64,000 bases of DNA from Candidatus Hydrogenedentota bacterium (lineage in GTDB: Bacteria > Hydrogenedentota > Hydrogenedentia > Hydrogenedentales > SLHB01). A model generated the notes under the pieces. The model was not told where the DNA came from and ran no database searches. It saw only the letters and a list, made by a program, of their open reading frames with translations. Made by a program: the position numbers and the translations under genes. Every line of letters begins with the position of its first letter. Positions within the stretch are counted from its first letter, which is position 1. This document shows, piece by piece, positions 6,958 through 58,690 of the stretch. The stretch is from assembly GCA_903925285.1 (NCBI GenBank), contig CAIYET010001005.1, positions 9,703 to 73,702 of the forward strand, read 5' to 3'.

Positions 6958-6958
6958 C

Positions 6959-8125: not shown

Positions 8126-9538
8126 ATGATTGATCTGGTAATTTCCAAATACCACGACACTGAAATATCGAAGGTCGACGACTTCAACCTCACCGCCGAA
8201 ACTCCCGTAAGTATTCTGGCGGCGCTCGTGGACGGGGCGTTCACTGACGTAATCCATTCATTCGTATTCTCGGGGATGTCGGTATCGCAACTGGCTTCCC
8301 CCTCCATGAACGCGCAACTGAATCCCGGGGTTGCCTTCAGCCGATCGGAAGACAAGATACTGCACGTCGGGGCGGCGCTTTCCGTCGCTGTCACGGCCGC
8401 CCATCCTTCCCAAGACCGGATCGACACCGTGGAAATGCGATATGCAACGCTGGACTTCAGTTCAGAAACAAGGGCGTTCAAGTCGCCGACCACGGGGGCG
8501 ATAAGCTATTCAGTGGTCAACACGAAGACGAAAATATTCATCGAGCTTCGCTGTCTCGCGGGGACCCCGGGGGCGGGTGTTGCTCCTGCGGTTGAAACGG
8601 GCTGGGTGAAGCTCGCCGAAGTATTGGTCCCTGCTGGGACAACACAGATAATTGATGCTTCGATTCGGAACATCACCGCACAGGAAGACGGGTCCGAAAA
8701 TACGGCATGGACCGCCGACAAGACCGCATCGTTCATGCTGGGCTCGATCGAGTCCATAAAGAACACCCTCATCGCGCATATCACGAACACCATCACGGCA
8801 TCGAACTCTGTCCATGGAATCAGGCAGGGAACCGGGAACGGGCTCGACGCCGACCTGTTGGACGGCCAGCACGGGGCCTTCTATCGGGACGCCAGCAACC
8901 TCGACGCCGGCGAAATCCCCCTTGCCCGGATTCCGACCACGCTGTCCGGAAAGATCGCCGACATGGTGGACGGCTACCATGCCGGCAACGAGAGCGGAAA
9001 GGTCCCTGTCTCGAACGGGCTCCTGAATATCGACCTGAACGCCGACAGGCTGGACGGTGAACATGGCTCCTTCTACCGTGACGCCGGGAACCTGAATACA
9101 GGCCTGATTCCCCTCGATCGAATTCCGTCGACCCTCACCGGCAAGATCGTGGACATGGTGGACGGCTACCACGCGGGCAATGAGAGCGGGAAAATACCCG
9201 TATCGAATACGGTCGTGAACGTCAACCTGAACGCGGACCTTTTGGATGGCCAGCACGGGGCATATTATCGAGACGCGGGCAACATGAACGCCGGCGAGCT
9301 TCCCCTTGCAAGAATCCCGGCAACCCTCACGGGCAAGGATGCAGACACCCTTGACGGCCAGCACGGGGCATATTACCGGGACGCCGGGAATATGAACGCA
9401 GGGACCCTCCCCTTGGACAGAATCCCCACGGAACTCACCGGGAAGAACTCCCCAACGGCGACGTTGGCGACAACCGCATTGAGGATAAGAATCGGCCGCC
9501 CGAGCCCGCTTGTGCCCGGCGATATCTGGATGGAGTGA
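8126..9538 (+). CDS. tail fibre protein 1
   Basis: Starts directly after the upstream TAA. Carries five LDGQHGxxYRDAGNxNxGxxPLxRIP repeats alternating with VDGYHAGNESGKxPVSN units. The N-terminal ~175 aa are paralogous to CDS 10243..11370. Confidence 0.75.
   Translation: MIDLVISKYHDTEISKVDDFNLTAETPVSILAALVDGAFTDVIHSFVFSGMSVSQLASPSMNAQLNPGVAFSRSEDKILHVGAALSVAVTAAHPSQDRIDTVEMRYATLDFSSETRAFKSPTTGAISYSVVNTKTKIFIELRCLAGTPGAGVAPAVETGWVKLAEVLVPAGTTQIIDASIRNITAQEDGSENTAWTADKTASFMLGSIESIKNTLIAHITNTITASNSVHGIRQGTGNGLDADLLDGQHGAFYRDASNLDAGEIPLARIPTTLSGKIADMVDGYHAGNESGKVPVSNGLLNIDLNADRLDGEHGSFYRDAGNLNTGLIPLDRIPSTLTGKIVDMVDGYHAGNESGKIPVSNTVVNVNLNADLLDGQHGAYYRDAGNMNAGELPLARIPATLTGKDADTLDGQHGAYYRDAGNMNAGTLPLDRIPTELTGKNSPTATLATTALRIRIGRPSPLVPGDIWME
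8843..9445 (+). repeat. in-frame tandem repeats inside tail fibre 1 (~190-nt units plus two shorter units)
   Basis: Direct reading shows LDADLLDGQHGAFYRDASNLDAGEIPLARIPTTLSGKIADMVDGYHAGNESGKVPVSN. A near-copy follows: LDGEHGSFYRDAGNLNTGLIPLDRIPSTLTGKIVDMVDGYHAGNESGKIPVSN. Two shorter LDGQHGAYYRDAGNMNAG units come after that. Confidence 0.7.
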
Positions 9539-41301: not shown

Positions 41302-41432
41302 AGGGGCGGCCATGTTGCTTTATCTGGCGGTGCGCCGGCCGCCTATGCGGCATGGATGGATATTTTAGATGAAGTTATAGAGCGTTCCGGGGAGTTCCCA
41401 TGGGAAGCTCACGAAGAAGGGGAGGTCCGATA

Positions 41433-43706: not shown

Positions 43707-43708
43707 CC

Positions 43709-44887
43709 ATGTCGGAAGTCCGTATCAGGGTCCTCGATGTCAACGACGCTAACCGCCGCCTGAAGTTCTCTCGGGCGGTGGAAGGCCTTGCCAAGGCGAT
43801 GCAGATACCCATTACCGTGCGGCCGCGCGACAAGGAAAACGCTGAAAAGTTCGTCTACGCCGCCGAAGAAGAACTGGTAGCGGCATGGAGAAAAGACTTT
43901 GCCAGCGTCCTAGATACGATCTACTTCACCGTCTGTGACGTTCTGGACCTTCCCCGGGTGACGACCTTCTCCAAGGCCATAAGGGAACAGGACCCCGAAC
44001 AGAAGCGCCCGATATCCGAAGCCATATTTTATCACCACAGGGTAATATTCAACCCGGAAACGGGGCTCCCGATCTACCGCGAAGACTTCGAGAAGATCAT
44101 CCACGCGATAGAGCGGTTTCTGAACAAGCGGCTGGACCCGTCGGCGAAGAAGATCGTCCTGCACTCCGTTGCCCTCGGGCGCGTCATGGCGCGGCGGCTT
44201 CTTGCGTTGAACGCGGCCGAAATACGCAAGCTGAAGCTTGAGGAAGTCGTCCACGAGGGCAAGCCGATCGAATGGATGGCAGAGTCCCTTGAAAGGCAGA
44301 ACCGCGCCATGGGGCCGTTGCGCCCTGAAGAGCGGGACCGGCTGTCGGAACACTACAAGCATATTTCGCGCATGGTCGACGTGGCCGAACAGTCCATGGG
44401 GGACCATATCACGCAGATGGAAGAGGACACCGTGCATGCGGTACGGCGCTCGATCATCGACGGGGTAAAGGGCCGATCATCCAAGACAGAGATAGCGCAG
44501 GACCTTTTCAACCGATTCGGGGATCTCAATCGCGATTGGGGGCGCATCGCGGAAACGGAAACGGTGGAATCCTTCAACAATGCTTTCCTGAAGGAAACCG
44601 CCGCCATGGCCGAGCCCGGGGAGAAAGTGTACTTCCGCCGCGTTGAAATGCGCGACGACTATGTATGCTCTTTCTGCGAGAAAATCCGGGGGGAAGTTGC
44701 CCTATATGTAAACTCTCCGCTGTCCGATGACAAGATCGAGGACCCGGTGGCCAAGGTTGCTATCTGGGAGGGCAAGAACAACATCGGCCGCAAGGCCAAG
44801 AACTACTGGATGCCGGCCGGAACGGTCCACCCATGGTGTCGCGGTTCATGGGAAAGATTCTTCCCCGACATGGAGGTAATAGTGTGA
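43709..44887 (+). CDS. MuF / SPP1 gp7-like minor head (head morphogenesis) protein
   Basis: Internal ATG (MSEVRIRVLD) 3 nt after the upstream stop. C-terminal DYVCSFCEKIRGE...PAGTVHPWCRGSWE resembles the conserved HPxCRC end of the Phage_Mu_F domain. Confidence 0.65.
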   Translation: MSEVRIRVLDVNDANRRLKFSRAVEGLAKAMQIPITVRPRDKENAEKFVYAAEEELVAAWRKDFASVLDTIYFTVCDVLDLPRVTTFSKAIREQDPEQKRPISEAIFYHHRVIFNPETGLPIYREDFEKIIHAIERFLNKRLDPSAKKIVLHSVALGRVMARRLLALNAAEIRKLKLEEVVHEGKPIEWMAESLERQNRAMGPLRPEERDRLSEHYKHISRMVDVAEQSMGDHITQMEEDTVHAVRRSIIDGVKGRSSKTEIAQDLFNRFGDLNRDWGRIAETETVESFNNAFLKETAAMAEPGEKVYFRRVEMRDDYVCSFCEKIRGEVALYVNSPLSDDKIEDPVAKVAIWEGKNNIGRKAKNYWMPAGTVHPWCRGSWERFFPDMEVIV

Positions 44888-45870
44888 CTGAAGTAATCCT
44901 TGTCCTGTCGAAGGCGATCCGCCCGGGCCTTGTGGCCAAGTACGTCCCGGTCCAGCGGCGCGGGGACAAAATGTATCTCGGGAAGGTATGGACCCGCCCC
45001 GAGCCCCCCAAGACCGAAAAGCCGGGCTGGGCCGCAACGCATTACGGCGAGTGTCCGTACTGCGGGAACCGGCAAATGCTTCCCGGTGGAGTGCTGGCTG
45101 ACCATGGCTACAATCTTCATTTCGGATTCAGGAACGGGACATGCCCGGGCTCGCGCGAGAAGCCGTTCGAGATATCGAAAACCTTCACCGAAAAGAAAGT
45201 AGAGGAAGTTCGGGCCTCGATAGAGCGGCACAAGGAAAAGATTGCGGCCGGGGATTTGGTTGTTCACGAAAGCGGAATAGACTCAAAGGGGAAGGTTGTA
45301 AACCGAGAGATAAGTAGGGCGAAAATAATCGAGAACATGAGAGGGTTTATAGCCTTCCAGCGGGAACGCTTGGAGGGATGGGAGCCCCGGGAATTGACCC
45401 CCATTCGCGGCAGGACTGTTATTGACGAAAAGACGAGGCTACGAGAACTGAGCGAGGCCGAAAAAAAGGTTATGATTCAGGCCCAAGAGCAAGGTGAAGT
45501 GAAGGAGACGGGGAGATTGTGGAGGCGAAATGGGTGTGTTGCCTATGACAGGATTTCCCGGCTCGTAAACGATGGGTTTCTTGAAATAATTGAAAGACGT
45601 AATGGCAAGTACATGGAAGAACAGGTTATCCGTGCGAAGATAGCCCCCGGAGCCGCCGCCGCCTTCCCTGCGCTGGAAAAGCCCATCCGGGGCGGGAAGA
45701 TGGTTCAAGCCATGTGGGGAAAGCTGAAAGCGGAGGGCGAATTGAAAACGAAAGCCGGAAGCTCTCAAGCCTACTTCACGGCTGAAGAGCTTGCCCAAAG
45801 AAACCCGGACCGCGTGATATTGGTGGACAAGGATTACGATGCAATGTTCGTCGTCTTACGCAAGAAATAG
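44884..45870 (+). CDS. hypothetical head-module protein with the recurrent N-terminal module
   Basis: GTGA overlap with the MuF stop, GGAGG upstream, in frame with track ORF 44833..45870. VTEVILVLSKAIRPGLVAKYVPVQRRGDKMYLGKVWTRPEP. Also has a CPYC...C Zn-like cluster. Confidence 0.5.
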   Translation: MTEVILVLSKAIRPGLVAKYVPVQRRGDKMYLGKVWTRPEPPKTEKPGWAATHYGECPYCGNRQMLPGGVLADHGYNLHFGFRNGTCPGSREKPFEISKTFTEKKVEEVRASIERHKEKIAAGDLVVHESGIDSKGKVVNREISRAKIIENMRGFIAFQRERLEGWEPRELTPIRGRTVIDEKTRLRELSEAEKKVMIQAQEQGEVKETGRLWRRNGCVAYDRISRLVNDGFLEIIERRNGKYMEEQVIRAKIAPGAAAAFPALEKPIRGGKMVQAMWGKLKAEGELKTKAGSSQAYFTAEELAQRNPDRVILVDKDYDAMFVVLRKK

Positions 45871-45879
45871 GGGGATGGA

Positions 45880-48800
45880 ATGATCCGCTTGATGATACCC
45901 ATGGAGAACCTTGATACGCTTGAAAAAGCGCGCGCCGGGCTTGTCTACCGAACCGACCTCCCCTATCACCTTTCCAATGGAGCCTTGGCCTTCCGGCGGG
46001 GCTGGGTCCGTCCTGAAGACGTGAAGGCCCTGAATCAGGCGAAGAAACAGGGCGATGCGGCGAGCGTGGTTGGCAAGTATGAATACGAAGCCGATATGTT
46101 CGACGAGGCCGAAGGGGAGCCGTGGGACAGCCCGAAGGCGGAAGCAAAGCCCGAAGATCCGGAAGCCATTGCCGGAAAAGAGAAATGGAACATTTCCGGA
46201 ATGGGCTCCGCAAAGGTTTCGGAATTTGTTGTAGCGGCTCCCGAAGTGAAGACGCCGGAATGGCAAGTATCTGCGGAGCCCGAGAAGTCTAAGGGACATA
46301 TCGCGTTCTTCGGGTCCGGGGAACGGCAAAAAGAGCTTTACCAACTTGATAACGGTGATATCTTCACCGCGTATCTGGGCGAAGTCATAGACATGGACAC
46401 AAAGAACAGGATCGGGCGATGGGAAGGCCCGGGCTGGCAAAAAGACACCATTATGAAAAACCTCGGCATTGTCCAAGAGACAGCCCCCGAGGCGAAGGAA
46501 GAGCCGAAAGAAGCGCCGGCCCTCGATATCCCGGGAGACATCGTTCCGGACGAAATGATCGCCCGGATTGTTCTTTCAGAGCGCCCGGAGGAAGCCCCCG
46601 AGGGATGGATTATTTTCAACGCACCCCGGCCGCTGGTGGGCACGAAGTTCTGGCAGGGCCCTTTCGTGTCCGGGCTTTACTACGCGGCGGTGGACCCTTC
46701 CGACCCGGTAGCCAAAGACTTCATAAGGTCGAACTATCGAGACGGGGCAAGCGTCCTCATGTACCAAACGGAAGAGGCCTATGCCGCCGGCAAGCGGAAG
46801 GAACTCGCGGCCGAATACGAAGACGAATTCAAGAAACATCCGGACCTGAAAGAGTCGTTCGACAAGTACACCGTGGAACAAATCCTCAGTATGGAGCCCC
46901 CCGCTACCACCAAAAAGCTCAAGGATTATCGTAGAGCGATCGAATCGACCTCCGGGGTCAAAACGGACGGGGTAAAGGCCCCGGACGCAGGGGCCAAGCA
47001 GGACGCCCCGGCGGCGGGCAAAACAGAGCCATCGACTATCGCGGAAAGGATATCCAAGCCCGAAATGCCGGACGGTGAAGAAGCGAAGACCGGCGACGTT
47101 CGATCCGACTTGGAACAGGCCATCGCGAAGATGAAGTTCGCGGACTATGGTTCGTGGTCGGCCTCGGGCAAGCACGTCGCGCCGGCGAAGCGCATGGAGT
47201 TGAATCAGCAAATCGCGGAACTCCTCCTCCTGCCCTCGAACGACCTGACGCCGCAAGAGCTTCAGGCCATCCGACAGTATTCAGGGTTCGGCGGCGTCAA
47301 GGCCGACGATGAACGCGGGGTCCTGTACGACTACTTCACGTCGCCCCCGGTGGCGCGCATGGTGTGGAAGCTGGCGAACAAGATCGTGCCCCTGAAGTCC
47401 GGTGCCCGGGCGCTCGAACCTTCCTGCGGGGCCGGCGTGTTCTTCGAGGTAGCGCCGCAAGGTGTCGACCTGACCGGCGTAGAGTTCGACAGCCGCACGT
47501 CGGCCGTGGCGGGGCTCCTGCAACCCCAAGCCCGCATCTACCATTCGTCCTTCGAGCAATTCAACCTCCACCAGAAAGAGAAGTTCGACGCCGTGATAGG
47601 CAACGCGCCCTTCGGCGACCGCTCTGTGGCGACCTCCTTCCTTGATGATCCCGACGAGAAGAGCCTTGACCGATACTTCGTCAGTCGATCGCTCGACAAC
47701 CTGAAGGGCGGCGGGACCATGGCGCTGATTGTCGCGCCCGGGGTGATGGACAATGTGTCCAACTCCGCATGGCGCTCGAAGATGCTCCGGAAGGGGCAAT
47801 TCATCGGCGCGATGCGACTGCCCAACCAGTCCTTCAAGCACACCAATACCGGCGTCTCCCCCGATATCGTCATGTTCCGGGCGTACCCTGAAGACATCAA
47901 GGCAAGGCTCGCGGTCATGTCGGATCAGGAAATGAAGGCCGCCGGCTTCTACGATGACGCATGGGTGGACGGGACCTACTACGACGAGTGCCCGGGGCAC
48001 CGCCTCGGGAGGGTGGAGCGCGGACAATTCGATTCCGAAATCACCGTGGGCAAGCTCGAACCGGCCGACATGGATCGAGCCCTTGAAGTGTTCGAGCCCC
48101 GAGAGCTTCATAGCGCGGAAGACTTCGGGAAGATACGGAACCTGACGCAAGGGACCCTGCCCGAGGCCCCTGATGAAAGCGAGAAGCTTTCCGAGCCCGA
48201 GGCTGAAGCTGTCGCGGCGAAGACCCTGCGCGTGGGGATGACGAAGAGCGAAAACGGGAAGATATACCGCCTGAACGAAAACCACCGATGGGAGCTTGTT
48301 CAAGCAGGAAGCGCGGTGGCGGCAAAGCTCGATCGGGTGAAGGAGATATCGGAAACCGTCCGCAAGATCCGCGAATCCATGCGCGCCGACGAGCCCGTGG
48401 ACGACCTTCAGCGTCAAGCCCGTAGCCTCGTGGAAGCCTATGAAAAGGACTTCGGGGTAAAGCACTCCGAAGACAAGGATATCCAGAAGTTCATCAAGGC
48501 CAACCCGGCGATCGCGAATGTCTACGAAGCCCTGACCATCGCTATAGATTCGGAACTTCTCACGAAGCAGAACGTCTACGACAAGGAAGTGGAAATCGTC
48601 GACGGGCACCGCCCCGCGATTCGCGCGCTCATGGAGCTTCAGCGGGACATGATGGACGCGACGAATGAATCCATCAAGGCCCGGTATCCGAATGGAGCCG
48701 AGGGGCTCATCGAGGCCATGTGGAGCGATCCCGACGTTTTCACTGACGACGCCGGGGTATTCAGGCTCCGCGAAGACTTCATTTCGGGCAACGCATGGGA

Positions 48801-51800
48801 GAAGATAGACGCCCTCGAAAAGGCCGTCGCCGATCACCCCGGGGACGAATGGGTGCGGAACCGCGAAAAGTGGCAAGCCGGCGCGGACGCCATGCGCGAT
48901 GCCGTGGGCTGGATTCCCGTAGAGGACGCCGACGTATTCCCGCAGGGCTCTTGGATTCCCGAAGACCTCATAAACCTCTGGGCTGGAAACGGCATGGGCC
49001 GTCCGGCGCGCAAGGGGTATCGGTACGCCAAGAATGAAGAGGGGAAATGGGGCCTTGCCGCGCTCAAGGGAGATTCCAAGTGGGACTGGAAGACAAGAGA
49101 ATATATCGAGACTAAAGAGGGGGACTGGCAGGAAGAGAACGATGAATTCATATACTTCCTGAACAACCAGAAACAGCGGTCAAAGTATACCGACACCGAA
49201 ACCTACAACAAAAACGCCGTCGGGAACTTCAAGGCATGGCTGGCTACCAATGAAGAGGCGCGCAAGGAAGTAGAGAACCTTTTCAACCGGAACTTCAATA
49301 CCGAACTTGGAGTCCCGACGAAGACCTACGCCGTCCACCTTGACGGATGGAACGATGAAGTGGTCCTTCAGCCGTGGCAATGGCAGACGATCCACCACCT
49401 GTACCGGCAGGGTAAGGGCCTGTCCGCGCTGGGCACGGGGTTCGGAAAGACGCTCGCGGCCGTGGGACTCTACGCGCTCCTGCGGCAGGAAGGAAAGACG
49501 CGGCGCGCTTTCTTCCAAGTGCCGAACAATAAGGTCAAGGATTGGGTGAAGACCTTCGCGAAGGCCATGCCGGGCCTGAAGGTCGGATCGGTGGACCCCG
49601 AGACGAAGGGTTACAACGACCAGACGAAGCGGTTTTCGTGGTATCAGGAACTTGCATCGGGCGATTACGACGTAATTATCCTCCCTGAGTCGTCTTCGAG
49701 CGAGATTCAACTGAATTCCGAGAATGACGACATGATCGTAGCCGACATTTCCTCCCAGATGACGACCACGGAAGGGAAGACCCAGCGGAAGAAGGAACAG
49801 GCCTTGGCCACGGCTGAAGGCAAGCTGTCCGGCGGAAAAAAGAACGTTACGATAACGTTTGAAGAACTAGGGTGCGATACGATTTTCTGCGATGAAATGC
49901 ACCGTATGAAGAATCTGTTCACGTCCAGCCTGTCCCGGGAAACGGGAATGAACGACGGCCGCCGATCGGACCGCGCGCTATCTTTCTTCAAGAAGTGCGA
50001 GTACATGCGCCGGGGCCACGAGGGCAAGGGCGTCTTCGGGCTCACGGCAACCCCGCTCACGAATTCGCCGCTCGAATACTACAACATGTTTTATCACATA
50101 GCCCCGGAAATGCTTTCAAGCATGGGGATCGCGAATATCGACGCTTTCATCAACAACTTCGCCAACATCGAAATGGGTCAAAAGATTGATTCATTCACCG
50201 GGCAAGTGAAGGACGGGAAGGTCCTCAAGGGGTTCAAGAATCTCAGGGCTCTTCAGGATATGTTCTTCAAGTACACCGACCTTCAGAACGATCCCACGAA
50301 GATCGGCCTGAAGAAGCCGACGCCCACGAACCGCCCGAACATCATCCCTATTCAGGAAACGCAGACGGCGGAGATCCGGGCCATAGCGGATGAAGTGAAA
50401 AAGTACCGGGAAATGTCGAAGGAAAAGCGCGCGGACATGCACGAAAACTTCCTGACGTACTATACCCGAATGAGAACCGCGTCCCTCGACCTCGAACTGT
50501 ACGACCCGGTGCGGTTCAAGGGGTGGAAGAATCCGAAGATCGAGAAGATGGTGGACTCGGCCATGGAAACGCTCAATGCGCGCGGCGGCGGGCAAGTAGT
50601 ATTCTGCGATCGCGTTGTTTCCAGCGATGGGACAATAAACATGCACGAGAAGATCAAGGCCGCCCTCGTCGCGAAGGGGTTTGCGGAAAATGAGATTGTC
50701 GTAGTGAATGGGCTCACGAAGTCGGGCACGAAAGCATCAGAACAGTCCCTTGAAAAGGAAGTGTCGTCCGCCATCGACGGGTTTAACTCGGGAAAGTACA
50801 AGATCATCATAGGCACCACGCAGACTATCGGGGAGGGCGTCAACCTTCAAAAGAACTCTTCCGCGCTTCACCACATGGACATCCCCTTCCGTCCCTCAGA
50901 CTTTATCCAGAGGAACGGCCGCATTGACAGGCAGGGGAACAAGCAGTCCACCGTCGAGCTTCATACCTACGCGACAGCCGGGACGATCGACAACTACAGC
51001 ATGGCCCTCGTCGCCGGCAAGGAAAACTGGATTAACCAACTCCTGAAGACGAAATCGAATGTCTTCACGAATCCGAACGGCGAGGGAATGGACATGGACG
51101 AAATCCTGCTGTCCCTCACGCAGGAATGGGGCGACCTGAAGGGCGCTGAAGAGCAGAAGGCGGCTCTAGCATCGAAGAAGGCGGCCGCAATCCAAGCGGA
51201 CAACCAGAAGAAGGCGCATGAATTCTTGCGGCAACTGTCGCTCATGCGCGGGTCCCTGATCGGCTACAAGGGCGACAAGGGGTCCCGGGACTACCAGAAT
51301 CGGTTGCGCAAGATAGACAACCTCGAAGCCGGCCTTCAGACAAACCCCGAATTCCGTCACCCCGAGATATTGGGGCAGGACACGGGACCATTCATGTACG
51401 ACGAGGGCCGCAAGCTCGTGATAAAGAAGGGGGACCTCGTAATATCCAGCGGCGGCGTGTACCGAGTCGCCGACTTTGACTACAAGGAACGGAAATACTT
51501 CTTGCTGTCGGCTATCGACGGGAAGTCGGGGGCCTACGAGAACGCCTATACAAGCGCGACCCAGCGATCGTACTATTCCGGCAACAGCGAGGACAATTTC
51601 ATCTTCGTGCCGAATCCTTCACAACCACAGGTGGATCGGTACATTTCCCTGATCGACCCGGAAGGGTTCTACAAGCAACCGAAAGCCTTCAAGGCGGATA
51701 ACTACGAAGAGTTCGTGAAGATAAACGCCCGTGGGCACAGTATCAAAGAGAAGTATTTCGCCATCAACAAGAAGGGCGAAATTTCAGGGAAGTTGGGAAG

Positions 51801-52287
51801 CCTCTATGAAGGGGAAACCGTGTTCAACCCGTTCACAGACAAGGGGCGCAAGAAGATAAGAGCCCTTGTTTCCGCCGGAAAGGTATCGCCCTCTCAATAT
51901 GAGCGATGGGAGGAGTCTTTCGGGGATCTCGGCGCGCGCGATATTCTCCACGAATCGGCGATTAAGGTATTCGATGCCCAGCCCCTTGCAAAGCCGGTCA
52001 TGGCCGCTTTCGACAAGGCCCCAAAGCTTTCCGACAGTTACTATAGGCACAATGATTGGGTCAACGTTGCGGACTTGGCAACGGAAATAGGGGAAGCCGA
52101 CGTTGACAACGTGGAGGAAGTTCTTAAAAAGCACCCCGACATAGAGACATCCTATCAGCTTGTCGGAGCTGGTCGCCGCTATGATCTTTATGCCCGCCGC
52201 AAGGGGGGGGTGCAAAAAGCATTGGGACACAGTAAAATAGTCGTAAAGGGGGAGCAAGTCTATGTACTACACGAACGAAGAAGTTGA
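45880..52287 (+). CDS. DarB-like polyvalent protein: N6-adenine DNA methyltransferase + SNF2/DExH helicase (2135 aa)
   Basis: MTase motif I LEPSCGAGVF (about nt 47413) and motif IV GNAPFG (about nt 47599). Helicase motifs GTGFGKT (about 49430), DEMH (49891), TATPLTNS, and QRNGRIDRQG (about 50908). N-terminal recurrent module. Confidence 0.8.
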   Translation: MIRLMIPMENLDTLEKARAGLVYRTDLPYHLSNGALAFRRGWVRPEDVKALNQAKKQGDAASVVGKYEYEADMFDEAEGEPWDSPKAEAKPEDPEAIAGKEKWNISGMGSAKVSEFVVAAPEVKTPEWQVSAEPEKSKGHIAFFGSGERQKELYQLDNGDIFTAYLGEVIDMDTKNRIGRWEGPGWQKDTIMKNLGIVQETAPEAKEEPKEAPALDIPGDIVPDEMIARIVLSERPEEAPEGWIIFNAPRPLVGTKFWQGPFVSGLYYAAVDPSDPVAKDFIRSNYRDGASVLMYQTEEAYAAGKRKELAAEYEDEFKKHPDLKESFDKYTVEQILSMEPPATTKKLKDYRRAIESTSGVKTDGVKAPDAGAKQDAPAAGKTEPSTIAERISKPEMPDGEEAKTGDVRSDLEQAIAKMKFADYGSWSASGKHVAPAKRMELNQQIAELLLLPSNDLTPQELQAIRQYSGFGGVKADDERGVLYDYFTSPPVARMVWKLANKIVPLKSGARALEPSCGAGVFFEVAPQGVDLTGVEFDSRTSAVAGLLQPQARIYHSSFEQFNLHQKEKFDAVIGNAPFGDRSVATSFLDDPDEKSLDRYFVSRSLDNLKGGGTMALIVAPGVMDNVSNSAWRSKMLRKGQFIGAMRLPNQSFKHTNTGVSPDIVMFRAYPEDIKARLAVMSDQEMKAAGFYDDAWVDGTYYDECPGHRLGRVERGQFDSEITVGKLEPADMDRALEVFEPRELHSAEDFGKIRNLTQGTLPEAPDESEKLSEPEAEAVAAKTLRVGMTKSENGKIYRLNENHRWELVQAGSAVAAKLDRVKEISETVRKIRESMRADEPVDDLQRQARSLVEAYEKDFGVKHSEDKDIQKFIKANPAIANVYEALTIAIDSELLTKQNVYDKEVEIVDGHRPAIRALMELQRDMMDATNESIKARYPNGAEGLIEAMWSDPDVFTDDAGVFRLREDFISGNAWEKIDALEKAVADHPGDEWVRNREKWQAGADAMRDAVGWIPVEDADVFPQGSWIPEDLINLWAGNGMGRPARKGYRYAKNEEGKWGLAALKGDSKWDWKTREYIETKEGDWQEENDEFIYFLNNQKQRSKYTDTETYNKNAVGNFKAWLATNEEARKEVENLFNRNFNTELGVPTKTYAVHLDGWNDEVVLQPWQWQTIHHLYRQGKGLSALGTGFGKTLAAVGLYALLRQEGKTRRAFFQVPNNKVKDWVKTFAKAMPGLKVGSVDPETKGYNDQTKRFSWYQELASGDYDVIILPESSSSEIQLNSENDDMIVADISSQMTTTEGKTQRKKEQALATAEGKLSGGKKNVTITFEELGCDTIFCDEMHRMKNLFTSSLSRETGMNDGRRSDRALSFFKKCEYMRRGHEGKGVFGLTATPLTNSPLEYYNMFYHIAPEMLSSMGIANIDAFINNFANIEMGQKIDSFTGQVKDGKVLKGFKNLRALQDMFFKYTDLQNDPTKIGLKKPTPTNRPNIIPIQETQTAEIRAIADEVKKYREMSKEKRADMHENFLTYYTRMRTASLDLELYDPVRFKGWKNPKIEKMVDSAMETLNARGGGQVVFCDRVVSSDGTINMHEKIKAALVAKGFAENEIVVVNGLTKSGTKASEQSLEKEVSSAIDGFNSGKYKIIIGTTQTIGEGVNLQKNSSALHHMDIPFRPSDFIQRNGRIDRQGNKQSTVELHTYATAGTIDNYSMALVAGKENWINQLLKTKSNVFTNPNGEGMDMDEILLSLTQEWGDLKGAEEQKAALASKKAAAIQADNQKKAHEFLRQLSLMRGSLIGYKGDKGSRDYQNRLRKIDNLEAGLQTNPEFRHPEILGQDTGPFMYDEGRKLVIKKGDLVISSGGVYRVADFDYKERKYFLLSAIDGKSGAYENAYTSATQRSYYSGNSEDNFIFVPNPSQPQVDRYISLIDPEGFYKQPKAFKADNYEEFVKINARGHSIKEKYFAINKKGEISGKLGSLYEGETVFNPFTDKGRKKIRALVSAGKVSPSQYERWEESFGDLGARDILHESAIKVFDAQPLAKPVMAAFDKAPKLSDSYYRHNDWVNVADLATEIGEADVDNVEEVLKKHPDIETSYQLVGAGRRYDLYARRKGGVQKALGHSKIVVKGEQVYVLHERRS

Positions 52288-52642
52288 CTCCTTCGAGAAA
52301 AAAGTGCAAATCCGGACCGGGGAATCCTACGTCCGGAAGATCGCCCTCGGGGTCGCCTCGATGCTTGAGGCTCAGCCATCCCTTTACAAGACCTTCGGCG
52401 TTTACTGGTGGGCAATCAAGGCCGCGCTCAAGAAATACTACCCCGGCAAGGCGTGGTTCATGGGGGGATATTTCGATCAACTCATGTACGAGCGGGCATG
52501 GCATGGATCGCTTTTCCGCACCGTACTGGCGGCAACTATCTACCATGGCAATCATCGGCTCATAACTTCAGGGCACGAATACATCGGGAAGGATGAAGAG
52601 GAGTATACCTATACGCTCTTCGATGAAGACGCAGGGTTTTAG
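52262..52642 (+). CDS. hypothetical protein
   Basis: GGGGGAG RBS. 126 aa. Overlaps the last 26 nt of the 2135-aa gene. Trp/Tyr-rich. Lacks the recurrent module. Confidence 0.45.
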   Translation: MYYTNEEVDSFEKKVQIRTGESYVRKIALGVASMLEAQPSLYKTFGVYWWAIKAALKKYYPGKAWFMGGYFDQLMYERAWHGSLFRTVLAATIYHGNHRLITSGHEYIGKDEEEYTYTLFDEDAGF

Positions 52643-52652
52643 GCGGGGGGAT

Positions 52653-53939
52653 ATGCGAATAATCTTAGTGGTTCCAGTATCGCGGGAAAGGATGCTGAAG
52701 GCTCTCAATACATCCCGCCTCGTCAAGAAAGAAGTCACCGTTCGGCGCGGCGGGAAGACATTCCAGCAAATGCGCTGGCTTCGCCCTGACCAAGTGGCCC
52801 CCGGGAGGAAGCCGTCCGCCCCTGTGGAACAGAAGCCGGCGCGGGAAAGCAAGCCCGTCGACAACTCCCACCCCCGGATAAAAAAAGACGATCCTGTATT
52901 GTTCAACTATCAGGGGAAGCAGATTCAGGCGAAAGTCATCGACGATACCCATAAAGAGGGCGTTGTCGCTCAGAGCGAGTCCGGGGAAAAGTTCAACGTC
53001 CGCTGGCAGGACATGGCGAAGAAGGCCGCCCCCGAGGCCGCCGCACTGCCAGAGGACAACGTACAGGCTCAGGTTGCGTGGATGATCGACCCCAGCCGGA
53101 CCGACAATTCCAAGAAGATCGACAAGAAACTCCTCGTCCAGCCGTCCGGGGATCTCGATGAACTCTACAAGCTGGCAGAGGAAGCCCGCGCCGGTTTCAG
53201 GCAGTTCATGGAGAAGGCCAAGAGCGATCTAGGGGCAAAGGCGCTTCTTTCCCGGCCTGTCCTGAAGAGCAAAGAGCGTATCCTTGAGAAGATGAAAGAG
53301 GACGGGGTTACGGATGCAAGCCAGATTTACGACATTGACGGCCATACCCTTGTGTTCGACGGCCTAGACGGGGTAGCGAAGGGGCTGAAGTATTTCATGG
53401 CGCAGGGCGCGGCAATCAGGATCAAGAACAACTATGCCAACCCTTCACCCGCCGGATACCGGGACGTGAATGTCAACATCAAGCTTCCTAACGGGATGAT
53501 ATCAGAGATCCAGATAAACACTGAAGCGATGATGGAGGCAAAGGAAGGGGTGGGGCATATCTTCTACGAGGTCATGCGCGAGGCTCTTGGAGCCCTGCCG
53601 CCCCCGCCGCCCCCGGCACCGTATGCTGATATACTGGAAGCACAAAAGGCTTTCTATAATTTCGCGTGGGAAACGTCACAGAAGGGTCAGGAAGACGCCA
53701 ACCTCAAGGCCTCGCTCTTGTCGATCGCGCGGCCTTTCTGGAACAAGTCGGCGAACAACTTGGGGGAGCGGGATTCAAGCTGGTTGTCGGACAAAACGCG
53801 GAAGAGGTTCATGGACTTCGGTTCCCAAGCGAATGGAACATCGTCCTTCTCGAAGAACTCAAGTCCCTCGGTCGTCAAGTCTATCTTGGGCATCTTGTTC
53901 CCTCCACGCTCAAAGTATAGACGCGGTTTCCGGGCATGA
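52653..53939 (+). CDS. RelA/SpoT-homologue (small alarmone synthetase-like nucleotidyl pyrophosphokinase) domain protein with the recurrent N-terminal module
   Basis: Internal ATG (MRIILVVPVS) in frame with track ORF 52593..53939. Synthetase-domain pattern LKSKERILEKM...IYDIDGHTLVF...NPSPAGYRDVNVNIKLPNGMISEIQINTEAMMEAKEGVGHIFYE, to be compared with RelA_SpoT KSxxSIxxK / DxxGxR / GYRSxH / EIQIRT...H..Y. Confidence 0.7.
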   Translation: MRIILVVPVSRERMLKALNTSRLVKKEVTVRRGGKTFQQMRWLRPDQVAPGRKPSAPVEQKPARESKPVDNSHPRIKKDDPVLFNYQGKQIQAKVIDDTHKEGVVAQSESGEKFNVRWQDMAKKAAPEAAALPEDNVQAQVAWMIDPSRTDNSKKIDKKLLVQPSGDLDELYKLAEEARAGFRQFMEKAKSDLGAKALLSRPVLKSKERILEKMKEDGVTDASQIYDIDGHTLVFDGLDGVAKGLKYFMAQGAAIRIKNNYANPSPAGYRDVNVNIKLPNGMISEIQINTEAMMEAKEGVGHIFYEVMREALGALPPPPPPAPYADILEAQKAFYNFAWETSQKGQEDANLKASLLSIARPFWNKSANNLGERDSSWLSDKTRKRFMDFGSQANGTSSFSKNSSPSVVKSILGILFPPRSKYRRGFRA

Positions 53940-56900
53940 CAAGTAAGGCGGCAACTTTTATGGAAAAGGCTCTCGACCGCTCGAAACTCATAAAGACGCC
54001 GACGATCATGCACGTCGACGGCAAAGCCTTCCCGACATACCGCTGGAAGGCGCGGCCCGAAGCAGAGCCCGCAGAGCCACCCCGGGCGGAAGCCCCGCCC
54101 GCCGGCTATGTCCCTACGAAGACCGTAACGTCCTACAAGCTCTTCCGGGTAAGCAAGGATCATCCCGGGGAAATCTTCCCGCTGTTCGTTGACGCCAACA
54201 CCCCCATACCCTTCGGCGAATGGGTGGCGGCCAAGCCCGGCGACAGGGACCCCAAGGTAACGGACCATGTGAAATCCAAGCTGGGACCCCTAGCCTATCG
54301 CCCCGGCTTCCATGCCGGCAGAATCCCCGTCGCTACCCATATCGGGCTGAAGGTGAAGAAAAACGACAAGGCCCCATCCTTCCGCAACCCTGATTATGTA
54401 TGGGCTGAAGTAACCTTCGCCGATGACGTTGACTGGCAGTCCGAAGCCGCTCGCCGGGCTGTCCGGGGGAAGGATGGACAGGTCATAGCGCGGACCGCCC
54501 ATATCACCGATCAAGTTCCGTATGGGGGGTACTACTCTTACAAGACGAACTCGAATATGACGGGCGAGTGGATGATATCGGGGACCATGAAGGTAAACCG
54601 CATCCTGACCGACGCCGAAGTGGCCGAAATCAACGAAAAGACGAAGTTTTCGGACCTCCCAAGGGTTGAACCGCTTGATATCTCCGTGTATGGGTTCGGC
54701 AAAGACGGCCGGCCGGCAAAGTCTGTCCAACTACTTCCGGATAGGGACTTCTACGACTATCAAGACTCGCACATGGAGAAGACCCATAAGCGCCTTTTCT
54801 ACATTGACGACTTGGACAACCAATACGCTGAATGGATCGAGAACGCTGGCGACATAGGCCGGGAACTTGCCTCGCATCAAGAAACAGCCGACCCCTTGTA
54901 CATTGGGGAAAAGCTCCGGAAGTTGTCGAAGGTCTTTATATTCGCCGAGTCCTCCCGGGCCGATCTGGGCTTTGTTGATACCAGCTTTTCTTTCCCGAAG
55001 ACCGATAGGGCGATAATCAAGGAATATGTCCGGCAATACGATGAATATAAGGGAAATCTAGGGGTGCTGGGGCAAGCATCGAAGTCGCTTTCTTATGCGT
55101 TATTGTCGAGGAATGGCCCCATGTTCCTTGAGGCTTTTATAGATTTTGTCGCGAAATACAACGTCCTGAAACAATCGCAGGGGTTCGAGAAGACAAAGCT
55201 TCCCGATAGCCTATCCCGCCTCGTCGACGACAGGATGCAGAAATATGGGGCTCCTTCCCCGGTAGCGCCCAAAGAGGATGACAGCGAATTCAAGCGGGCC
55301 GGAAAGACCGTCGACGGCCTTGAAGTGCTGGACGATATCCCGAACACATCGTCGATAGGCTCTTCCTTGAACGAATATGAATCCCTCCCGGGGATTCGTG
55401 AAGTTCCCATGAGCGTGTTCAGTGATCCAGATCCGTATAAAAATTACTATGCGGCCGACGATATCGACCGGACATACCGGCTGGCTGAAGAAATAAAACA
55501 ATCCGGACAGATTAAGCCGCTGATTGTCGTGATGGACAAGAAGGGTCCCTATATCCTAGAGGGCGGGCACCGCTGGTCGGCGCTGGGGGTTCTCGGGAAG
55601 AAGTCTTTCCCAGCTCTTGTGGTGATGGACACGGAAGACACCGGCGTTGAAAAGGCCCTCGATTATTCAAAGCTCTCCAAGGTGCCCGTCGTCGCGCATG
55701 CCAAGGTGGGGGACTATCAAACCTCCCGATGGAAGAAGAGGGAAGAGCCGGCGGCCGCCCCTAACCCGGCTCCCGTGCAGAGTGTGGCGGACTTCATTTC
55801 GTTCATGTACCAGCTTCCCCGAAACGCCGTGAATCAAGTGAACATTGAAAAGATCGACGATATAGACCCCGCGCTTGCGGAGGAACTTCGCAACAACAAG
55901 GAAGTGTTCAAGAAAAAGCTCTGTTACAACAACTCTTGGCAAGCGGCGTCGATGGCCGATGGCATTGGGAAAAAAGTGAACTATGTGGAGGGTTTTGTCG
56001 CCCTTGGTGTCGGCGGTTGCATGATCCCAATAGACCACGCTTGGAACTCGATAGAGGTGAACGGAGAAACAAAGTATTTCGACGTTACCAACGATATCGT
56101 ATGGGGCGGCGATATGTCGGTTCAAAAAAACGGATACGTCCCCCTATATGCAACGGACGACCTTCTCACCATAGGAAAATATATAGGGCGAAGCCCGGTG
56201 ACAAAGGCTTTCGAGGCCATGCGCAAGATTCGGGCCGCCGCCCGGGATTCCGACATGCCGCCCTCTTTCGCGTCCGTTCTTTCCACCCTGAAGGATAAGG
56301 TGGGCGAGGTCAAGAAGTCCCTGACCTACGGCGGGCACCCCCTTGAGGACCGCTACAAGGTTCACGGCATGGATATCTCGATCGAGACAAAGAAGGGCTC
56401 CACGCGGCGCGGGACCGACAAGGACGGGCACGAGTGGGCGACGAAAATGAACGCCGACTACGGGTATATCCGGGGCACCGTGGGCAAGGATAAAGACCAT
56501 CTTGATTGCTATGTCGGCCCGAATCCTGAATCCACGAAGGTTTTCATAGTCCATCAAAACGATCCGACGACAGGGAAGTATGACGAAGACAAGGTTATGC
56601 TCGGGTTCGAGTCGGCCGCCGAGGCCAAGGCGCTCTACATGAAGCAGTACGACCGCCCGGGGTTCTTTGGCTCGATGGATGAAACCGATATCGAGAAGAT
56701 GAAGGAAAGGGCGTTCTCCAAAGAGGCCAAAGGCAGGATTCTTGTGGTCAAGTCCGTCGACGGGGAACTGGAAGAGCGGGCCGGCAAGGGATATTCCCGG
56801 CTGGACAAGCTCATCGAAAGGAAGTATGGGCCGGAAGTAATGATAGGAGTAGAAGTGGAGTTGGAGCATACTGGAAGCCGCGAAGAGGCCAAGAGGATCG

Positions 56901-58690
56901 CGCTCGATCACCTTCATCAAGACTATCACTATTACTCGAAGCTCATTGCGGCCGGGCTTGTCGATGAGCCAAGGGCTCTGGCGATAGCGAAAGAGGAAGG
57001 TGTCGATATGAAGAAGTCGCTACGGCTTATGGTCCCGATTCTCGACAAGGCCATGAAGTCCTCGAAGCTGATCCTTCAAACGAAGATGGTCACGCGCGAG
57101 GGCACGACCTTCCCGATGAAGGTGTGGGTCCTGCCCGGGGAAGCGAGCCATGCCGCGCAGTTCGATATGTTCGAGGCGGCCGAAGTGGACGACACGGTGA
57201 AGAAGATCGCCCCCCGGGAGCCCGAGCGAGATCCCGTGAAGATCGAGGCGGCTATCCAGTCGGCAACCCCCGAAACCCGCAACGAGGTCCAAGCGGTCCT
57301 GTTTGGAGCGAAGGAGGAGGAGCCCGAGGCCGCCGAGCCCCCGTATGAGTTCACCCCGGGACGCCGCACGGTTTCGGCCTACAATGGGCATGGCTACACG
57401 AGTCAGGAGGAGCTAGAAGACTATACTGGCGTATTCCCTAAGAGAATGAAGCTGATTCGGCAAGCCAAGGCCCTCAACGATCCGCGCCCTTCATGGATAC
57501 CGGCGGCCGACGAGGGAGCTTTCTCTGGGTGGAAATGGGAGCGCCGATTCCCGTATGCGAGGATCGCCCCTAACGAATATGTTGTTCAGGTCACGAAGGA
57601 AAAGATGGTGATTATGAGCGCGGACGTGCTGATAGCCACCACGAACTACTACAAGGCGAGGGAAAAAGAGCGCCGGAGGATTGAAGCAGACAAGTGGAAT
57701 CAGGACAAGAGGGAACGTGCAAGAATATGGCTGGAAGAACACAAGAACGACGACGACGATAAGAACCGGGAATTTAGATATAAATCCAATATCAAATACT
57801 ATCGCGAAGTAGTAGATGGAAAGAGGTTTCAGAAACCCAAGGCTGTCGTTGCCATGGGTTCAAACAAAATGTGCCATGACCAATCGTGTATCATCAAGAA
57901 ATACTCCGAAGACGATGACTATTCCATGTGGACCCATCTTCACGATGCCATGGAAGAGCTTGACCAGAAAGCGATCGACATGCAACTTCAGGCCGAAGAC
58001 GATGGTAACACCTACTCGAAGGGGGAAAAGACCTCCTACGGGAACATGGGTACGAAGGACACCCTGCTTGAGAAGTACGGCGTCAAGGTCAAGCGGCAGA
58101 ACGGGAAAGAGATTACCGATACCGAAACCGAAGAGATAAAGGCCGCCTTGGACCACATATTTTCCATTTTCGGCGACAGGTCTTCCATGGCGCGCACGTT
58201 CGGGCTGAAGATATCCCATGCGGCCGAAACCGCCATGCACGCTCGAAAGGCAATCGGAATCTTCTTCCCCTCCCATCGGGCTATCGGCGTGTCGGCCGGC
58301 GGCGGGGCGAAGCAGTTCGGGTTCACCCTTTCCCACGAGTGGGCGCACTTCATGGACAACTACCTTGGGGGGGACAAGTACCACTATTCCTCGGACGACT
58401 TCAAGTCCATTTCCCACGCGATAGCGAATACCTTCAAGTCGAATATGGCGAAGAAACAGAAGAGCGACTACCAGAACCGGACATGCGAGTGCTTCGCCCG
58501 GGCCTTCGAGCAATACTTTGCCATGAAGACCGGGGATGGCGACGAATACCAGCGGATGATGTCTGACGCCGGGAACCACCCCTCGAACGATGTTTTCCTG
58601 AAAGAAGTGTCCCCGCTGATAGATAGATTTTTTTCCGAGCGCGGCGATATGCTGAAGGCCATGAAGATTACTTTGTGGTCAATAAGATAG
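53936..58690 (+). CDS. 1584-aa polyvalent protein with ParB/Srx-like, transglutaminase-like Cys peptidase, PPase-like and HExxH zincin domains
   Basis: ATGA overlap. ParB-like KPLIVVMDKKGPYILEGGHRWSAL (about nt 55530). Cys/His/Asp triad candidates CYNNSWQAA ... IDHAWNSIEVNGETKYFDVT (about 55920-56090). YGYIRGTVGKDKDHLDCYVGP (PPase-like, about 56460). LSHEWAHFMD plus CECFARAFEQYF (about 58330-58510). Three copies of the recurrent module. Confidence 0.75.
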   Translation: MTSKAATFMEKALDRSKLIKTPTIMHVDGKAFPTYRWKARPEAEPAEPPRAEAPPAGYVPTKTVTSYKLFRVSKDHPGEIFPLFVDANTPIPFGEWVAAKPGDRDPKVTDHVKSKLGPLAYRPGFHAGRIPVATHIGLKVKKNDKAPSFRNPDYVWAEVTFADDVDWQSEAARRAVRGKDGQVIARTAHITDQVPYGGYYSYKTNSNMTGEWMISGTMKVNRILTDAEVAEINEKTKFSDLPRVEPLDISVYGFGKDGRPAKSVQLLPDRDFYDYQDSHMEKTHKRLFYIDDLDNQYAEWIENAGDIGRELASHQETADPLYIGEKLRKLSKVFIFAESSRADLGFVDTSFSFPKTDRAIIKEYVRQYDEYKGNLGVLGQASKSLSYALLSRNGPMFLEAFIDFVAKYNVLKQSQGFEKTKLPDSLSRLVDDRMQKYGAPSPVAPKEDDSEFKRAGKTVDGLEVLDDIPNTSSIGSSLNEYESLPGIREVPMSVFSDPDPYKNYYAADDIDRTYRLAEEIKQSGQIKPLIVVMDKKGPYILEGGHRWSALGVLGKKSFPALVVMDTEDTGVEKALDYSKLSKVPVVAHAKVGDYQTSRWKKREEPAAAPNPAPVQSVADFISFMYQLPRNAVNQVNIEKIDDIDPALAEELRNNKEVFKKKLCYNNSWQAASMADGIGKKVNYVEGFVALGVGGCMIPIDHAWNSIEVNGETKYFDVTNDIVWGGDMSVQKNGYVPLYATDDLLTIGKYIGRSPVTKAFEAMRKIRAAARDSDMPPSFASVLSTLKDKVGEVKKSLTYGGHPLEDRYKVHGMDISIETKKGSTRRGTDKDGHEWATKMNADYGYIRGTVGKDKDHLDCYVGPNPESTKVFIVHQNDPTTGKYDEDKVMLGFESAAEAKALYMKQYDRPGFFGSMDETDIEKMKERAFSKEAKGRILVVKSVDGELEERAGKGYSRLDKLIERKYGPEVMIGVEVELEHTGSREEAKRIALDHLHQDYHYYSKLIAAGLVDEPRALAIAKEEGVDMKKSLRLMVPILDKAMKSSKLILQTKMVTREGTTFPMKVWVLPGEASHAAQFDMFEAAEVDDTVKKIAPREPERDPVKIEAAIQSATPETRNEVQAVLFGAKEEEPEAAEPPYEFTPGRRTVSAYNGHGYTSQEELEDYTGVFPKRMKLIRQAKALNDPRPSWIPAADEGAFSGWKWERRFPYARIAPNEYVVQVTKEKMVIMSADVLIATTNYYKAREKERRRIEADKWNQDKRERARIWLEEHKNDDDDKNREFRYKSNIKYYREVVDGKRFQKPKAVVAMGSNKMCHDQSCIIKKYSEDDDYSMWTHLHDAMEELDQKAIDMQLQAEDDGNTYSKGEKTSYGNMGTKDTLLEKYGVKVKRQNGKEITDTETEEIKAALDHIFSIFGDRSSMARTFGLKISHAAETAMHARKAIGIFFPSHRAIGVSAGGGAKQFGFTLSHEWAHFMDNYLGGDKYHYSSDDFKSISHAIANTFKSNMAKKQKSDYQNRTCECFARAFEQYFAMKTGDGDEYQRMMSDAGNHPSNDVFLKEVSPLIDRFFSERGDMLKAMKITLWSIR

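Follow-up and report, generated by a model that had tools for sequence, protein, structure and literature searches.

Phage T4 marks its internal proteins with a capsid-targeting sequence (CTS) of about 10 residues, which the prohead protease gp21 cleaves off at a defined site. Polyvalent proteins are considered one of the main vehicles with which phages and plasmids deliver anti-defence enzymes together with their DNA, and packaging recognition of such large and variable proteins is known for few model phages only. They have been argued to be packaged and injected (Iyer, Burroughs, Anand, de Souza, Aravind 2017, J Bacteriol; PMC5512222), and InPase and RelA/SpoT are listed there as phage-type-only domains. 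For phage P1, Gonzales et al. (2022, Viruses; PMC9024508) state that the 30 N-terminal residues of DarB suffice to bring a reporter into the capsid, while gp47 of phi24B, a polyvalent protein of 2811 amino acids (aa) with LPD5, LPD1, LPD38 and MuF-C domains, was detected in virions and its ejection was proposed (bioRxiv 10.64898/2026.04.10.717836). Here we analyse a stretch of 64,000 nucleotides from contig CAIYET010001005.1 (positions 9,703 to 73,702, assembly GCA_903925285.1), hereafter the window, and in particular an ATG-to-stop open reading frame (ORF) on its + strand (53936..58690, 1584 codons), whose product joins several effector-type domains and is punctuated by three copies of a leader module of about 40 residues. 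On balance we lean towards reading this protein as a virion-packaged, injected effector that was built from fused leader and payload cassettes, with the leader as a capsid-targeting tag.

A leader module at gene starts and inside one large protein

A preliminary description of the window had reported this ORF and the repeated module inside it. All 11 motifs quoted there are present in the same order, and the three leader copies proved to be real: a hidden Markov model (HMM) built from them recovered a fourth copy in the six-frame translation of the window (E 7.5e-6), located in the upstream 448-aa RelA/SpoT ORF, and reading the N-termini of the neighbouring proteins revealed that the leader also opens the ORFs of 768, 345 and 2135 aa. 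A search of the six-frame translation with a 7-copy HMM returns exactly seven copies, four at N-termini of neighbouring genes and three inside the ORF under study, and nothing else below E 0.1. The true starts of the neighbouring leader genes are likely internal ATG or GTG codons that place the leader at the extreme N-terminus (MTKIIPIV, VTEVILVL, MIRLMIPM, MRIILVVPV). Likewise, the large protein itself may start at its second ATG (M9, at 53960), because AAGG lies 12-15 nucleotides upstream of this codon and the public gene call (P0001, 1576 aa) starts there.

Outside the window, a 9-copy profile matched 262 proteins at E <= 1e-3 among 1.84 billion representative proteins. Position and copy number were counted in the best 150 of these 262: the first leader copy lies no more than 60 residues from the N-terminus in 124 of the 150, and two or three copies are detected in 28. 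The consensus of 184 copies (LEKAldrsKLVpKkVtVtRkGKTFqrTqWVrPeE) has near-invariant K, A, L, V, W and P residues and a net charge of about +7 over 36 residues, and it is kept by 57 internal copies, many of which have a KS[ILV]R[LY]VVP strand in front and, behind them, one or two QxDLF-type motifs together with acidic or proline-rich linkers. The leader usually precedes a flexible Pro/Glu/Ala-rich linker, represented in this ORF by AEPPRAEAPP and EEPEAAEPP; the linker after leader copy 2 contains no Pro-Pro. The leader matched no Pfam model. Payloads in 60 leader-bearing proteins include InPase (10), DUF5661 (6), Zeta toxin, ART-PolyVal, LPD1 and RelA/SpoT (4 each) and, furthermore, DUF3626, topoisomerase IB, SNF2, NUDIX, RadC, 2H, PI3/4-kinase-like, DNA ligase, HipA-like and SAM lyase domains. 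Given this diversity, the leader can be regarded as a tag on varied effector-type proteins.

The motif QFDMFEAAE (57158-57184) stands right after leader copy 3, and a DMF(D/E)xAE motif follows the leader both here and in the 2135-aa protein, with a 27-nucleotide similarity at the DNA level (family D8; 46092-46118 and 57163-57189). An acidic Q/x-D-[LM]-F-[DES] motif was also observed behind the leader in three proteins of the window (DMFDEAEG, DMFEAAEV and, at residues ~65-75 of the 768-aa ORF, QFDLFSG) and in many database copies, where it is at times duplicated; it may act as an additional linear signal, be it for binding or for cleavage.

Architecture of orthologous loci

Four contigs have one and the same order of a leader-tagged methylase/helicase, a 126-aa ORF, a leader-tagged RelA/SpoT protein and the polyvalent protein, the last of which varies in architecture (domains as in Table 1). 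It reads leader - N-domain - ParB - InPase - DUF5661 in L005 (P0121, 612 aa), leader - InPase - DUF5661 - leader - C-module in L007 (P0332, 836 aa), leader - ART - N-domain - InPase - DUF5661 - leader - C-module in L001 (P0002, 1228 aa), and leader - N-domain - X1 - ParB - leader - X2 - InPase - DUF5661 - leader - C-module in the window. Compared with P0121, to which it is 71-83% identical in the common parts and with which it has the final 30 residues in common, the window protein carries insertions at residues 265-437, 579-791 and 1054-1554, the second and third of which start with a leader. Judged from these alignments, orthologues differ by leader-led cassettes. In the more distant prophage L002/L003, which is found on contigs of 0.35-4.8 Mb, two neighbouring genes in the portal-capsid interval encode leader plus C-module (575 aa) and InPase (389 aa) individually, and standalone leader plus C-module genes of 546-575 aa are found in many contigs. 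In the window, five leader-bearing genes and a MuF-like gene come after the portal gene, an order that recurs in L001, L005, L007 and this prophage. A side observation concerns the DarB-like orthologue of L007 (positions 1-8323, 3164 aa), which has weak or faint intein/homing-endonuclease signatures (Hint, LAGLIDADG, Intein_splicing).

Domain composition

The preliminary description had counted at least four enzyme-like domains in the protein. Its ParB/sulfiredoxin (Srx), inorganic-pyrophosphatase and zincin assignments are supported by the searches reported below, the N-terminal domain with its RPGFHAG motif turned out to be conserved but uncharacterised, and the Cys-His-Asp region is unverified as an enzyme, while a further EVELEH block corresponds to DUF5661. 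Of the models suggested there, MPTase-PolyVal (PF18818) gave no match at E <= 10 with residues 1401-1584 or at E <= 0.1 with the whole protein, and Transglut_core (PF01841) gave none even at E <= 10.

Leader copy 1 is directly followed by a Pro/Glu/Ala-rich linker (residues 47-59) and by the N-domain, a real, conserved and uncharacterised domain of about 200 residues. The homologue search returned at least 120 polyvalent proteins with 50-63% identity, P0003-P0120 among them, and all matches listed contain the N-domain. It may be N-terminal, central or C-terminal; the proteins concerned are 870-2700 aa long and additionally bear ART-PolyVal, GNAT, ASCH, strawberry-notch helicase and other domains. 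An alignment of 25 N-domain sequences has about 60 invariant positions including three His, Glu, Asp, Lys, Arg and a YKTNxNM motif, and this invariant polar pattern suggests an enzyme. The AlphaFold2 model is of high confidence (predicted local distance difference test, pLDDT, 90.9; predicted TM-score 0.87). Nonetheless, neither Pfam (even at E <= 10) nor NCBIfam contains a match, and Foldseek with the model found no structural neighbour in PDB (best E 0.3, TM <= 0.26). Among those PDB hits, cholix/ExoA ADP-ribosyltransferases (TM 0.21-0.26, prob < 0.1) are no evidence for such an activity. In BFVD, Foldseek returned uncharacterised viral proteins only, plus a likeness to rIIB/DUF7666 that is too faint (TM about 0.3) to be adopted. 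Curated collections contain the domain in one phage and two plasmids, each time labelled "hypothetical protein". It was also seen within strawberry-notch-type proteins, e.g. in a Bifidobacterium record, and helicases of this type are typical of conjugative elements.

The X1 segment behind the N-domain has few homologues (P0167, P0134) and matched neither Pfam (E <= 10) nor PHROG (E <= 1) models. The region that follows it, residues ~438-578, probably belongs to the ParB/sulfiredoxin superfamily because it matches PDB chain 7o0n ("ParB family protein"; E 2.8e-5 over residues 486-575), contains GGHRW, and has 63 homologues over residues 440-580 (37-83% identity), most of them annotated with PF02195, even though the ParB_N (PF02195) match of this protein itself (E 1e-3, 19.5 bits) is below the gathering score of 26.3. 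In other lineages, homologues of this domain lack the leader and are frequently fused to MuF (PF04233).

In the middle unit, the X2 segment contains the Cys-His-Asp set that had been described as transglutaminase- or papain-like. LCYNNSW is followed after 38 residues by DHAWNSIEV and after another 15 by FDVT, a spacing that agrees with the transglutaminase-core signature. Searches of X2 against Pfam (E <= 10), PHROGs (E <= 1) and PDB sequences (E <= 10) gave no match, nor did an IMG/VR scan or tblastn against GenBank phages, and a word-index search of 5.8 billion proteins found no homologue reaching beyond residue 672. With homologue, profile and PDB-sequence matches all absent, the unverified transglutaminase-like reading comes from the motif alone. 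A degenerate zincin copy was considered as well, given a weak colinear phmmer likeness (8 bits) to the zincin core of the C-module, and was dropped as unsupported (family HMM score -2.7, hhalign probability 0.3%). The assignment of the adjacent InPase is firm, based on a profile match to PF18823 (E 7.4e-45, 152.5 bits vs a cutoff of 26.8, residues 805-924). This region matches 12 PHROG families and residues 631-748, the C-terminal part, of PDB chain 9b41_L, deposited as "gp19 Portal" (E 6e-20); the strings DKDHLD and YDEDK in the protein sequence are candidates for retained acidic metal-binding residues. The DUF5661 block (PF18905) is a good profile-based assignment, scoring 30.1 bits as an isolated segment (cutoff 27) and 25.6 bits (E 1.6e-5) within the full protein.

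The last unit consists of leader copy 3, an equivalent of which is kept in P0002, P0332, P0264 and other proteins, and the C-module, for which we found 91 homologues of residues 1071-1584, many of them standalone with an N-terminal leader. Within its last ~190 residues lies the HExxH zincin that had been proposed, with HEWAH at 1467-1471 and CECFARAFEQYF at 1517-1528, where E1518 in CECFARAF is the candidate third-ligand Glu. The profile of the 91 homologues has a single PDB match, anthrax lethal factor (LF; 2l0r, E 0.067), and the alignment pairs HExxH with HEFGH and CECFARAF with EFFAEAF. When members of the family were scanned singly, LPD1 was matched by 19/30, Peptidase_M78 by 3/30 (E 7e-4) and ATLF by 2/30 (E 2.8e-3), and the C-terminal region of this protein has weak matches to LPD1, ATLF, DUF6782 and SprT. 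The AlphaFold2 model of residues 1025-1584 has a mean pLDDT of 81, and within the C-module the majority of 10-residue blocks exceed 85. Foldseek against PDB places it next to lethal factor (prob 0.99), the Pro-Pro endopeptidases PPEP-1/2/3 (prob 0.9-0.98; PPEP-2 TM 0.52, normalised to the target) and IrrE/PprI, although the zincin E-values are weak (0.04-0.07) and the TM-scores restricted to a core of ~200 aa. Since profile alignment, Foldseek and the M78/ATLF matches of family members agree, there are good grounds to predict the C-terminal HExxH domain to be a gluzincin of the M34/M78 type (LF/PPEP/IrrE-like). LPD1 appears to correspond to the third-ligand helix of this zincin.

Table 1. Features of the ORF under study and of the upstream genes in the window (nucleotide positions within the window; residue numbers of the 1584-aa protein)
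Feature	Position	Strand	Description
leader copy 1	53960..54073	+	residues 9-46, MEKALDRSKLIKTPTIMHVDGKAFPTYRWKARPE...; leader HMM i-E 4.8e-19
N-domain	54113..54709	+	residues 60-258; YKLFRV...PLFV...RPGFHAG...ATHIG...WAEV...AHITDQ...YKTNSNM; phrog_30118 E 4e-63
X1 unannotated segment	54728..55246	+	residues 265-437; absent from 612-aa orthologue P0121
ParB/sulfiredoxin-type domain (probable)	55247..55669	+	residues ~438-578; GGHRW 543-547
leader copy 2	55634..55759	+	residues 567-608, VEKALDYSKLSKVPVVAHAKVGDYQTSRWKKREEP; leader HMM i-E 2e-16
X2 orphan segment	55760..56308	+	residues 609-791; Cys663/His701/Asp716 (LCYNNSW, IDHAWNSIEV, YFDVT)
InPase, family-I inorganic-pyrophosphatase-like	56273..56707	+	Pfam span 805-924; N-terminal extension from about residue 780
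DUF5661 block	56840..56944	+	residues 969-1003, EVELEHTG...HYYSKL; PF18905
leader copy 3	57014..57154	+	residues 1027-1073, KSLRLMVPILDKAMKSSKLILQTKMVTREGTTFPMKVWVLPGE; leader HMM i-E 3.9e-18
C-module	57155..58687	+	residues 1074-1584, conserved family of ~510 aa; phrog_22901 E 3.6e-66
portal gene	39586-41301		precedes leader-tagged cassette
cargo cassette	41400..53939	+	four leader-led genes upstream of the ORF
768-aa ORF	41400	+	leader at N-terminus
MuF-like gene	about 43709-44887	+	inside cassette
345-aa ORF	44833	+	leader at N-terminus
2135-aa DarB-like N6-methylase + SNF2 helicase	45880	+	leader at N-terminus
126-aa ORF	52262-52642	+	overlaps end of DarB-like gene; no leader, no family match
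448-aa RelA/SpoT-domain protein	52593-53939	+	leader at N-terminus

Genomic neighbourhood and host

Besides the portal gene and the cargo cassette, the window contains a terminase gene at 25442 as well as baseplate and tail-fibre genes elsewhere. Several side observations were made on the surrounding genes. The MuF-like gene opens with a strand-helix-strand (VRIRVLDV...AVEGLAKAM..IPITVRPRD) that is loosely leader-like and sub-threshold (E about 0.2-0.6 in the L001/L002 orthologues). The 448-aa RelA/SpoT protein has a run of six prolines (ALPPPPPPAPY, residues ~341-350) just past its nucleotidyltransferase region, which could be relevant if the adjacent PPEP-like zincin cleaves Pro-Pro bonds. 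A 126-aa ORF likewise fills this place in L001, L005 and L007; in L001 its N-terminus is similar to that in the window (MYYT[ND]E[ED]VD). Downstream, an open frame of >1766 codons begins 11 nucleotides after the ORF, at 58701 on the + strand, and exits the window beyond 64000; its N-terminus MATKIQVRRGTAAEWTSANPTLAEGEPG matches tail-fibre and hyaluronidase-N PHROGs and is accompanied by many KKLTFANLW-type repeats, and the syntenic 1500-aa gene of L005 is annotated Mtd_N. We found no evidence of stop-codon recoding after 58690, as the apparently ORF-free stretch is this one open frame leaving the window.

Genomes bearing the C-module (L008-L028, GTDB) are mostly metagenome-assembled genomes of Spirochaetota, with Leptospira, Treponema and Termitinemataceae, and some Bacteroidota. 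Because C-module relatives are concentrated in Spirochaetota, the host of the window phage is probably a spirochaete. In L008, the closest relative of the C-module, located in a Spirochaetes metagenome-assembled genome, three consecutive ORFs carry the leader. Leptospira LE1-like phages possess the C-module and lack the leader, and therefore do not provide a cultured model for it. With the whole ORF as query, megablast matched no GenBank phage.

Discussion

The resemblance to polyvalent proteins that had been noted for the ORF is supported by both its domains and its virion-gene neighbourhood. Polyvalent proteins are recognised by 2-15 unrelated domains including effectors and by being phage-encoded near portal, MuF or late genes; the protein described here combines InPase, a probable ParB_N, DUF5661, LPD1/zincin and the N-domain and is encoded in just such a place. 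The combination of domains and its punctuation by a repeated module had also been considered distinctive. The punctuation is real and recurs in other proteins, but the combination is less special, as relatives carry reshuffled cassettes. While the class and several of the domains are already known, we did not find the leader family or its punctuating use inside proteins, the build by cassettes at one orthologous locus, or the N-domain in Pfam, PHROG annotations, PDB or the searchable literature.

In the reading we favour, the ORF comprises three tandem units (leader-N-domain-X1-ParB; leader-X2-InPase-DUF5661; leader-C-module with zincin) and would have arisen by joining leader-payload units encoded separately in related phages. 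The leader would dock its cargo to the assembling procapsid, be it to the portal, the MuF-like protein, the scaffold or the shell interior, in the manner of the signals at the N-termini of P1 DarB and of the T4 internal proteins, and the protein would be loaded into the capsid at head assembly and delivered to the host along with the DNA. There, the ParB/Srx domain (NTPase or nuclease-type), the pyrophosphatase-type domain, the zincin peptidase and the two uncharacterised domains might target early defences or metabolism. Polyvalent proteins of this lineage would lengthen or shorten by in-frame fusion or loss of entire leader and payload cassettes. We regard the leader as a probable assembly or targeting tag because it is present on all cargo genes, is biased towards N-termini, is located in the portal-capsid interval and is replaced by MuF elsewhere. 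The ParB homologues that are fused to MuF and free of leaders fit a role of the leader as an alternative virion-incorporation module. The conservation of the consensus in internal copies argues that these are functional too, either because each released unit is tagged or because several tags anchor one long protein. Cleavage of the proline-rich linkers by the LF/PPEP-like zincin is an appealing hypothesis.

Several points weigh against this reading. For this and every other leader-bearing protein, packaging, injection, cleavage and a targeting role of the leader are things we infer. The AlphaFold2 prediction for the leader, a helix and a beta-hairpin, is of low confidence (pLDDT only 46-62), and the leader profile found no solved-structure match, with one non-significant ribosomal L19e segment among PDB sequences. 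A tblastn search with the consensus did not find the leader in cultured phages of GenBank. The leader is not detectable in the more distant C-module relatives from Leptospira, Treponema and Bacteroidota genomes, only L008 keeping it, and the tag would therefore be lineage-specific or fast-diverging. Finally, two of the five payload regions are uncharacterised, and the strong positive charge of the leader is equally compatible with DNA binding.

This charge is also the starting point for an unlikely alternative, in which the leader, as a small basic element, binds nucleic acid or oligomerises, tethers effectors to the phage DNA or to one another and lets them travel with the genome, extra copies adding avidity. 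The low predicted stability of the helix and hairpin and the ribosomal segment as sole PDB sequence match would agree with a tether, yet no DNA-binding family matches the leader, and its N-terminal bias and restriction to genes of the portal-capsid interval favour an assembly signal. We give even less credit to the notion that only the N-terminal copy matters and the internal ones are functionless scars of recent gene fusion. M-KKSLRLMVPI before copy 3 does resemble the N-termini of separate leader genes (such as MRIILVVPV, MIRLMIPM and MTKIIPIV), and the units are separate genes in related phages; scars, however, would be expected to decay, whereas multiple copies occur in 28 of the 150 counted proteins and the internal copy before the C-module is fully consensus in proteins only 40-53% identical over that module (P0002, P0332, P0264, P0353 and others). 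A refinement of the capsid-tag reading, possible though doubtful, is a polyprotein whose internal leaders mark cuts made by its own zincin or a prohead protease to yield three tagged cargos. Internal leaders are conserved as well as N-terminal ones, which is expected if every fragment needs a tag; the nearest structures of the zincin include Pro-Pro endopeptidases, Pro-rich linkers follow the leaders, and Iyer et al. (PMC5512222) propose that polyvalent proteins are processed by zincins. On the other hand, unit boundaries have no conserved cleavage site, the linker behind leader 2 offers no Pro-Pro, the 612-aa orthologue has no zincin, and leader plus zincin also occurs as a gene of its own, whose product contains no further units to be cut apart.

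An origin of the ORF itself as an assembly chimera or by mis-joining of genes seems highly improbable. The source is a metagenomic contig, and an exact-sequence look-up found no second contig with an identical P0001 protein. Moreover, the N-domain/X1 and X2/InPase (~residue 791) junctions are without independent support because X2 is an orphan. However, the X1-into-ParB junction is spanned in independent assemblies (P0134, P0152, P0168), P0125, P0140 and P0150 extend beyond the ParB end (P0150 as far as residue 672), P0002 covers InPase-DUF5661-leader-C-module, P0121 covers leader-N-domain, and the neighbouring genes are syntenic in L001 and L005. Base composition is even along the whole ORF. 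The three internal leader copies have pairwise identities of 47%, 34% and 21% over 38 residues, and no DNA repeat was found between them, which rules out a repeat-driven misassembly.

Returning to the leader as a capsid-targeting tag, one might go further and suppose all of the following at once: leader and QxDLF motif form an undescribed portable signal for capsid loading and ejection, cassettes are the evolutionary unit of the injected arsenal of a large and mostly uncultured phage group, effectors concatenated in frame are re-cut at Pro-rich linkers by the co-packaged zincin once loaded or injected, and the N-domain is a new enzyme fold in wide use among phages and conjugative elements. As a joint proposition this is speculative and rather unlikely to hold in full. 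If the role as a tag is true, it would explain how effectors are recruited to the virion, namely by gaining a tag or by fusing behind a tagged gene. It would also provide a sequence handle for injected effectors in metagenomes, which already marks Zeta-toxin, ART, RelA/SpoT, topoisomerase IB and SAM-lyase proteins, and a candidate tool to load foreign proteins into capsids. The conserved N-domain, ~200 residues without family or structural neighbour, is a good biochemical target.

Comparison with known systems

Like the polyvalent proteins of Iyer et al., the protein unites unrelated effector domains in one polypeptide near virion genes, its orthologues vary in architecture, and its neighbours are a methylase plus SNF2 protein and a RelA/SpoT protein. 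It differs from that class in that its zincin does not match the hub MPTase-PolyVal, its ParB domain matches ParB_N with no DdrB-type ParB model in the Pfam scan, and the N-domain and leader match no Pfam model, the LPD families included. A term search of PMC5512222 found no repeated short N-terminal or internal module. With gp47 of phi24B the protein has large size, polyvalent character and LPD1 in common; the remaining domain set is a different one, and leader repeats are not reported for gp47.

As regards the leader, P1 DarB (PMC9024508) is a giant methylase-helicase antirestriction protein that is loaded into the head via a short N-terminal signal, and here the DarB-like 2135-aa neighbour and the ORF have a common leader. 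Unlike the P1 signal, to which we claim no sequence likeness, one conserved leader is found on five consecutive genes and is repeated internally. In the T4 CTS system (PMC9024508), several injected proteins (IPI-III, Alt) have one N-terminal tag in common, as is the case for the leader; the latter, however, is longer at about 40 residues, is predicted to fold and has no evident cleavage site. The arrangement of an N-terminal virion-incorporation module with variable C-terminal effectors also recalls MuF and SPP1 gp7 fusions, although the leader is much shorter than MuF and has no sequence relationship to it, and a separate MuF-like gene is present in the same cassette. Finally, while the C-module has ~320 conserved residues without known counterpart in front of its zincin core, the core itself resembles LF/PPEP (MEROPS M34) and IrrE/ImmA (M78) in having HExxH and, about 50 residues downstream, a Glu in an ExFAxAF helix.

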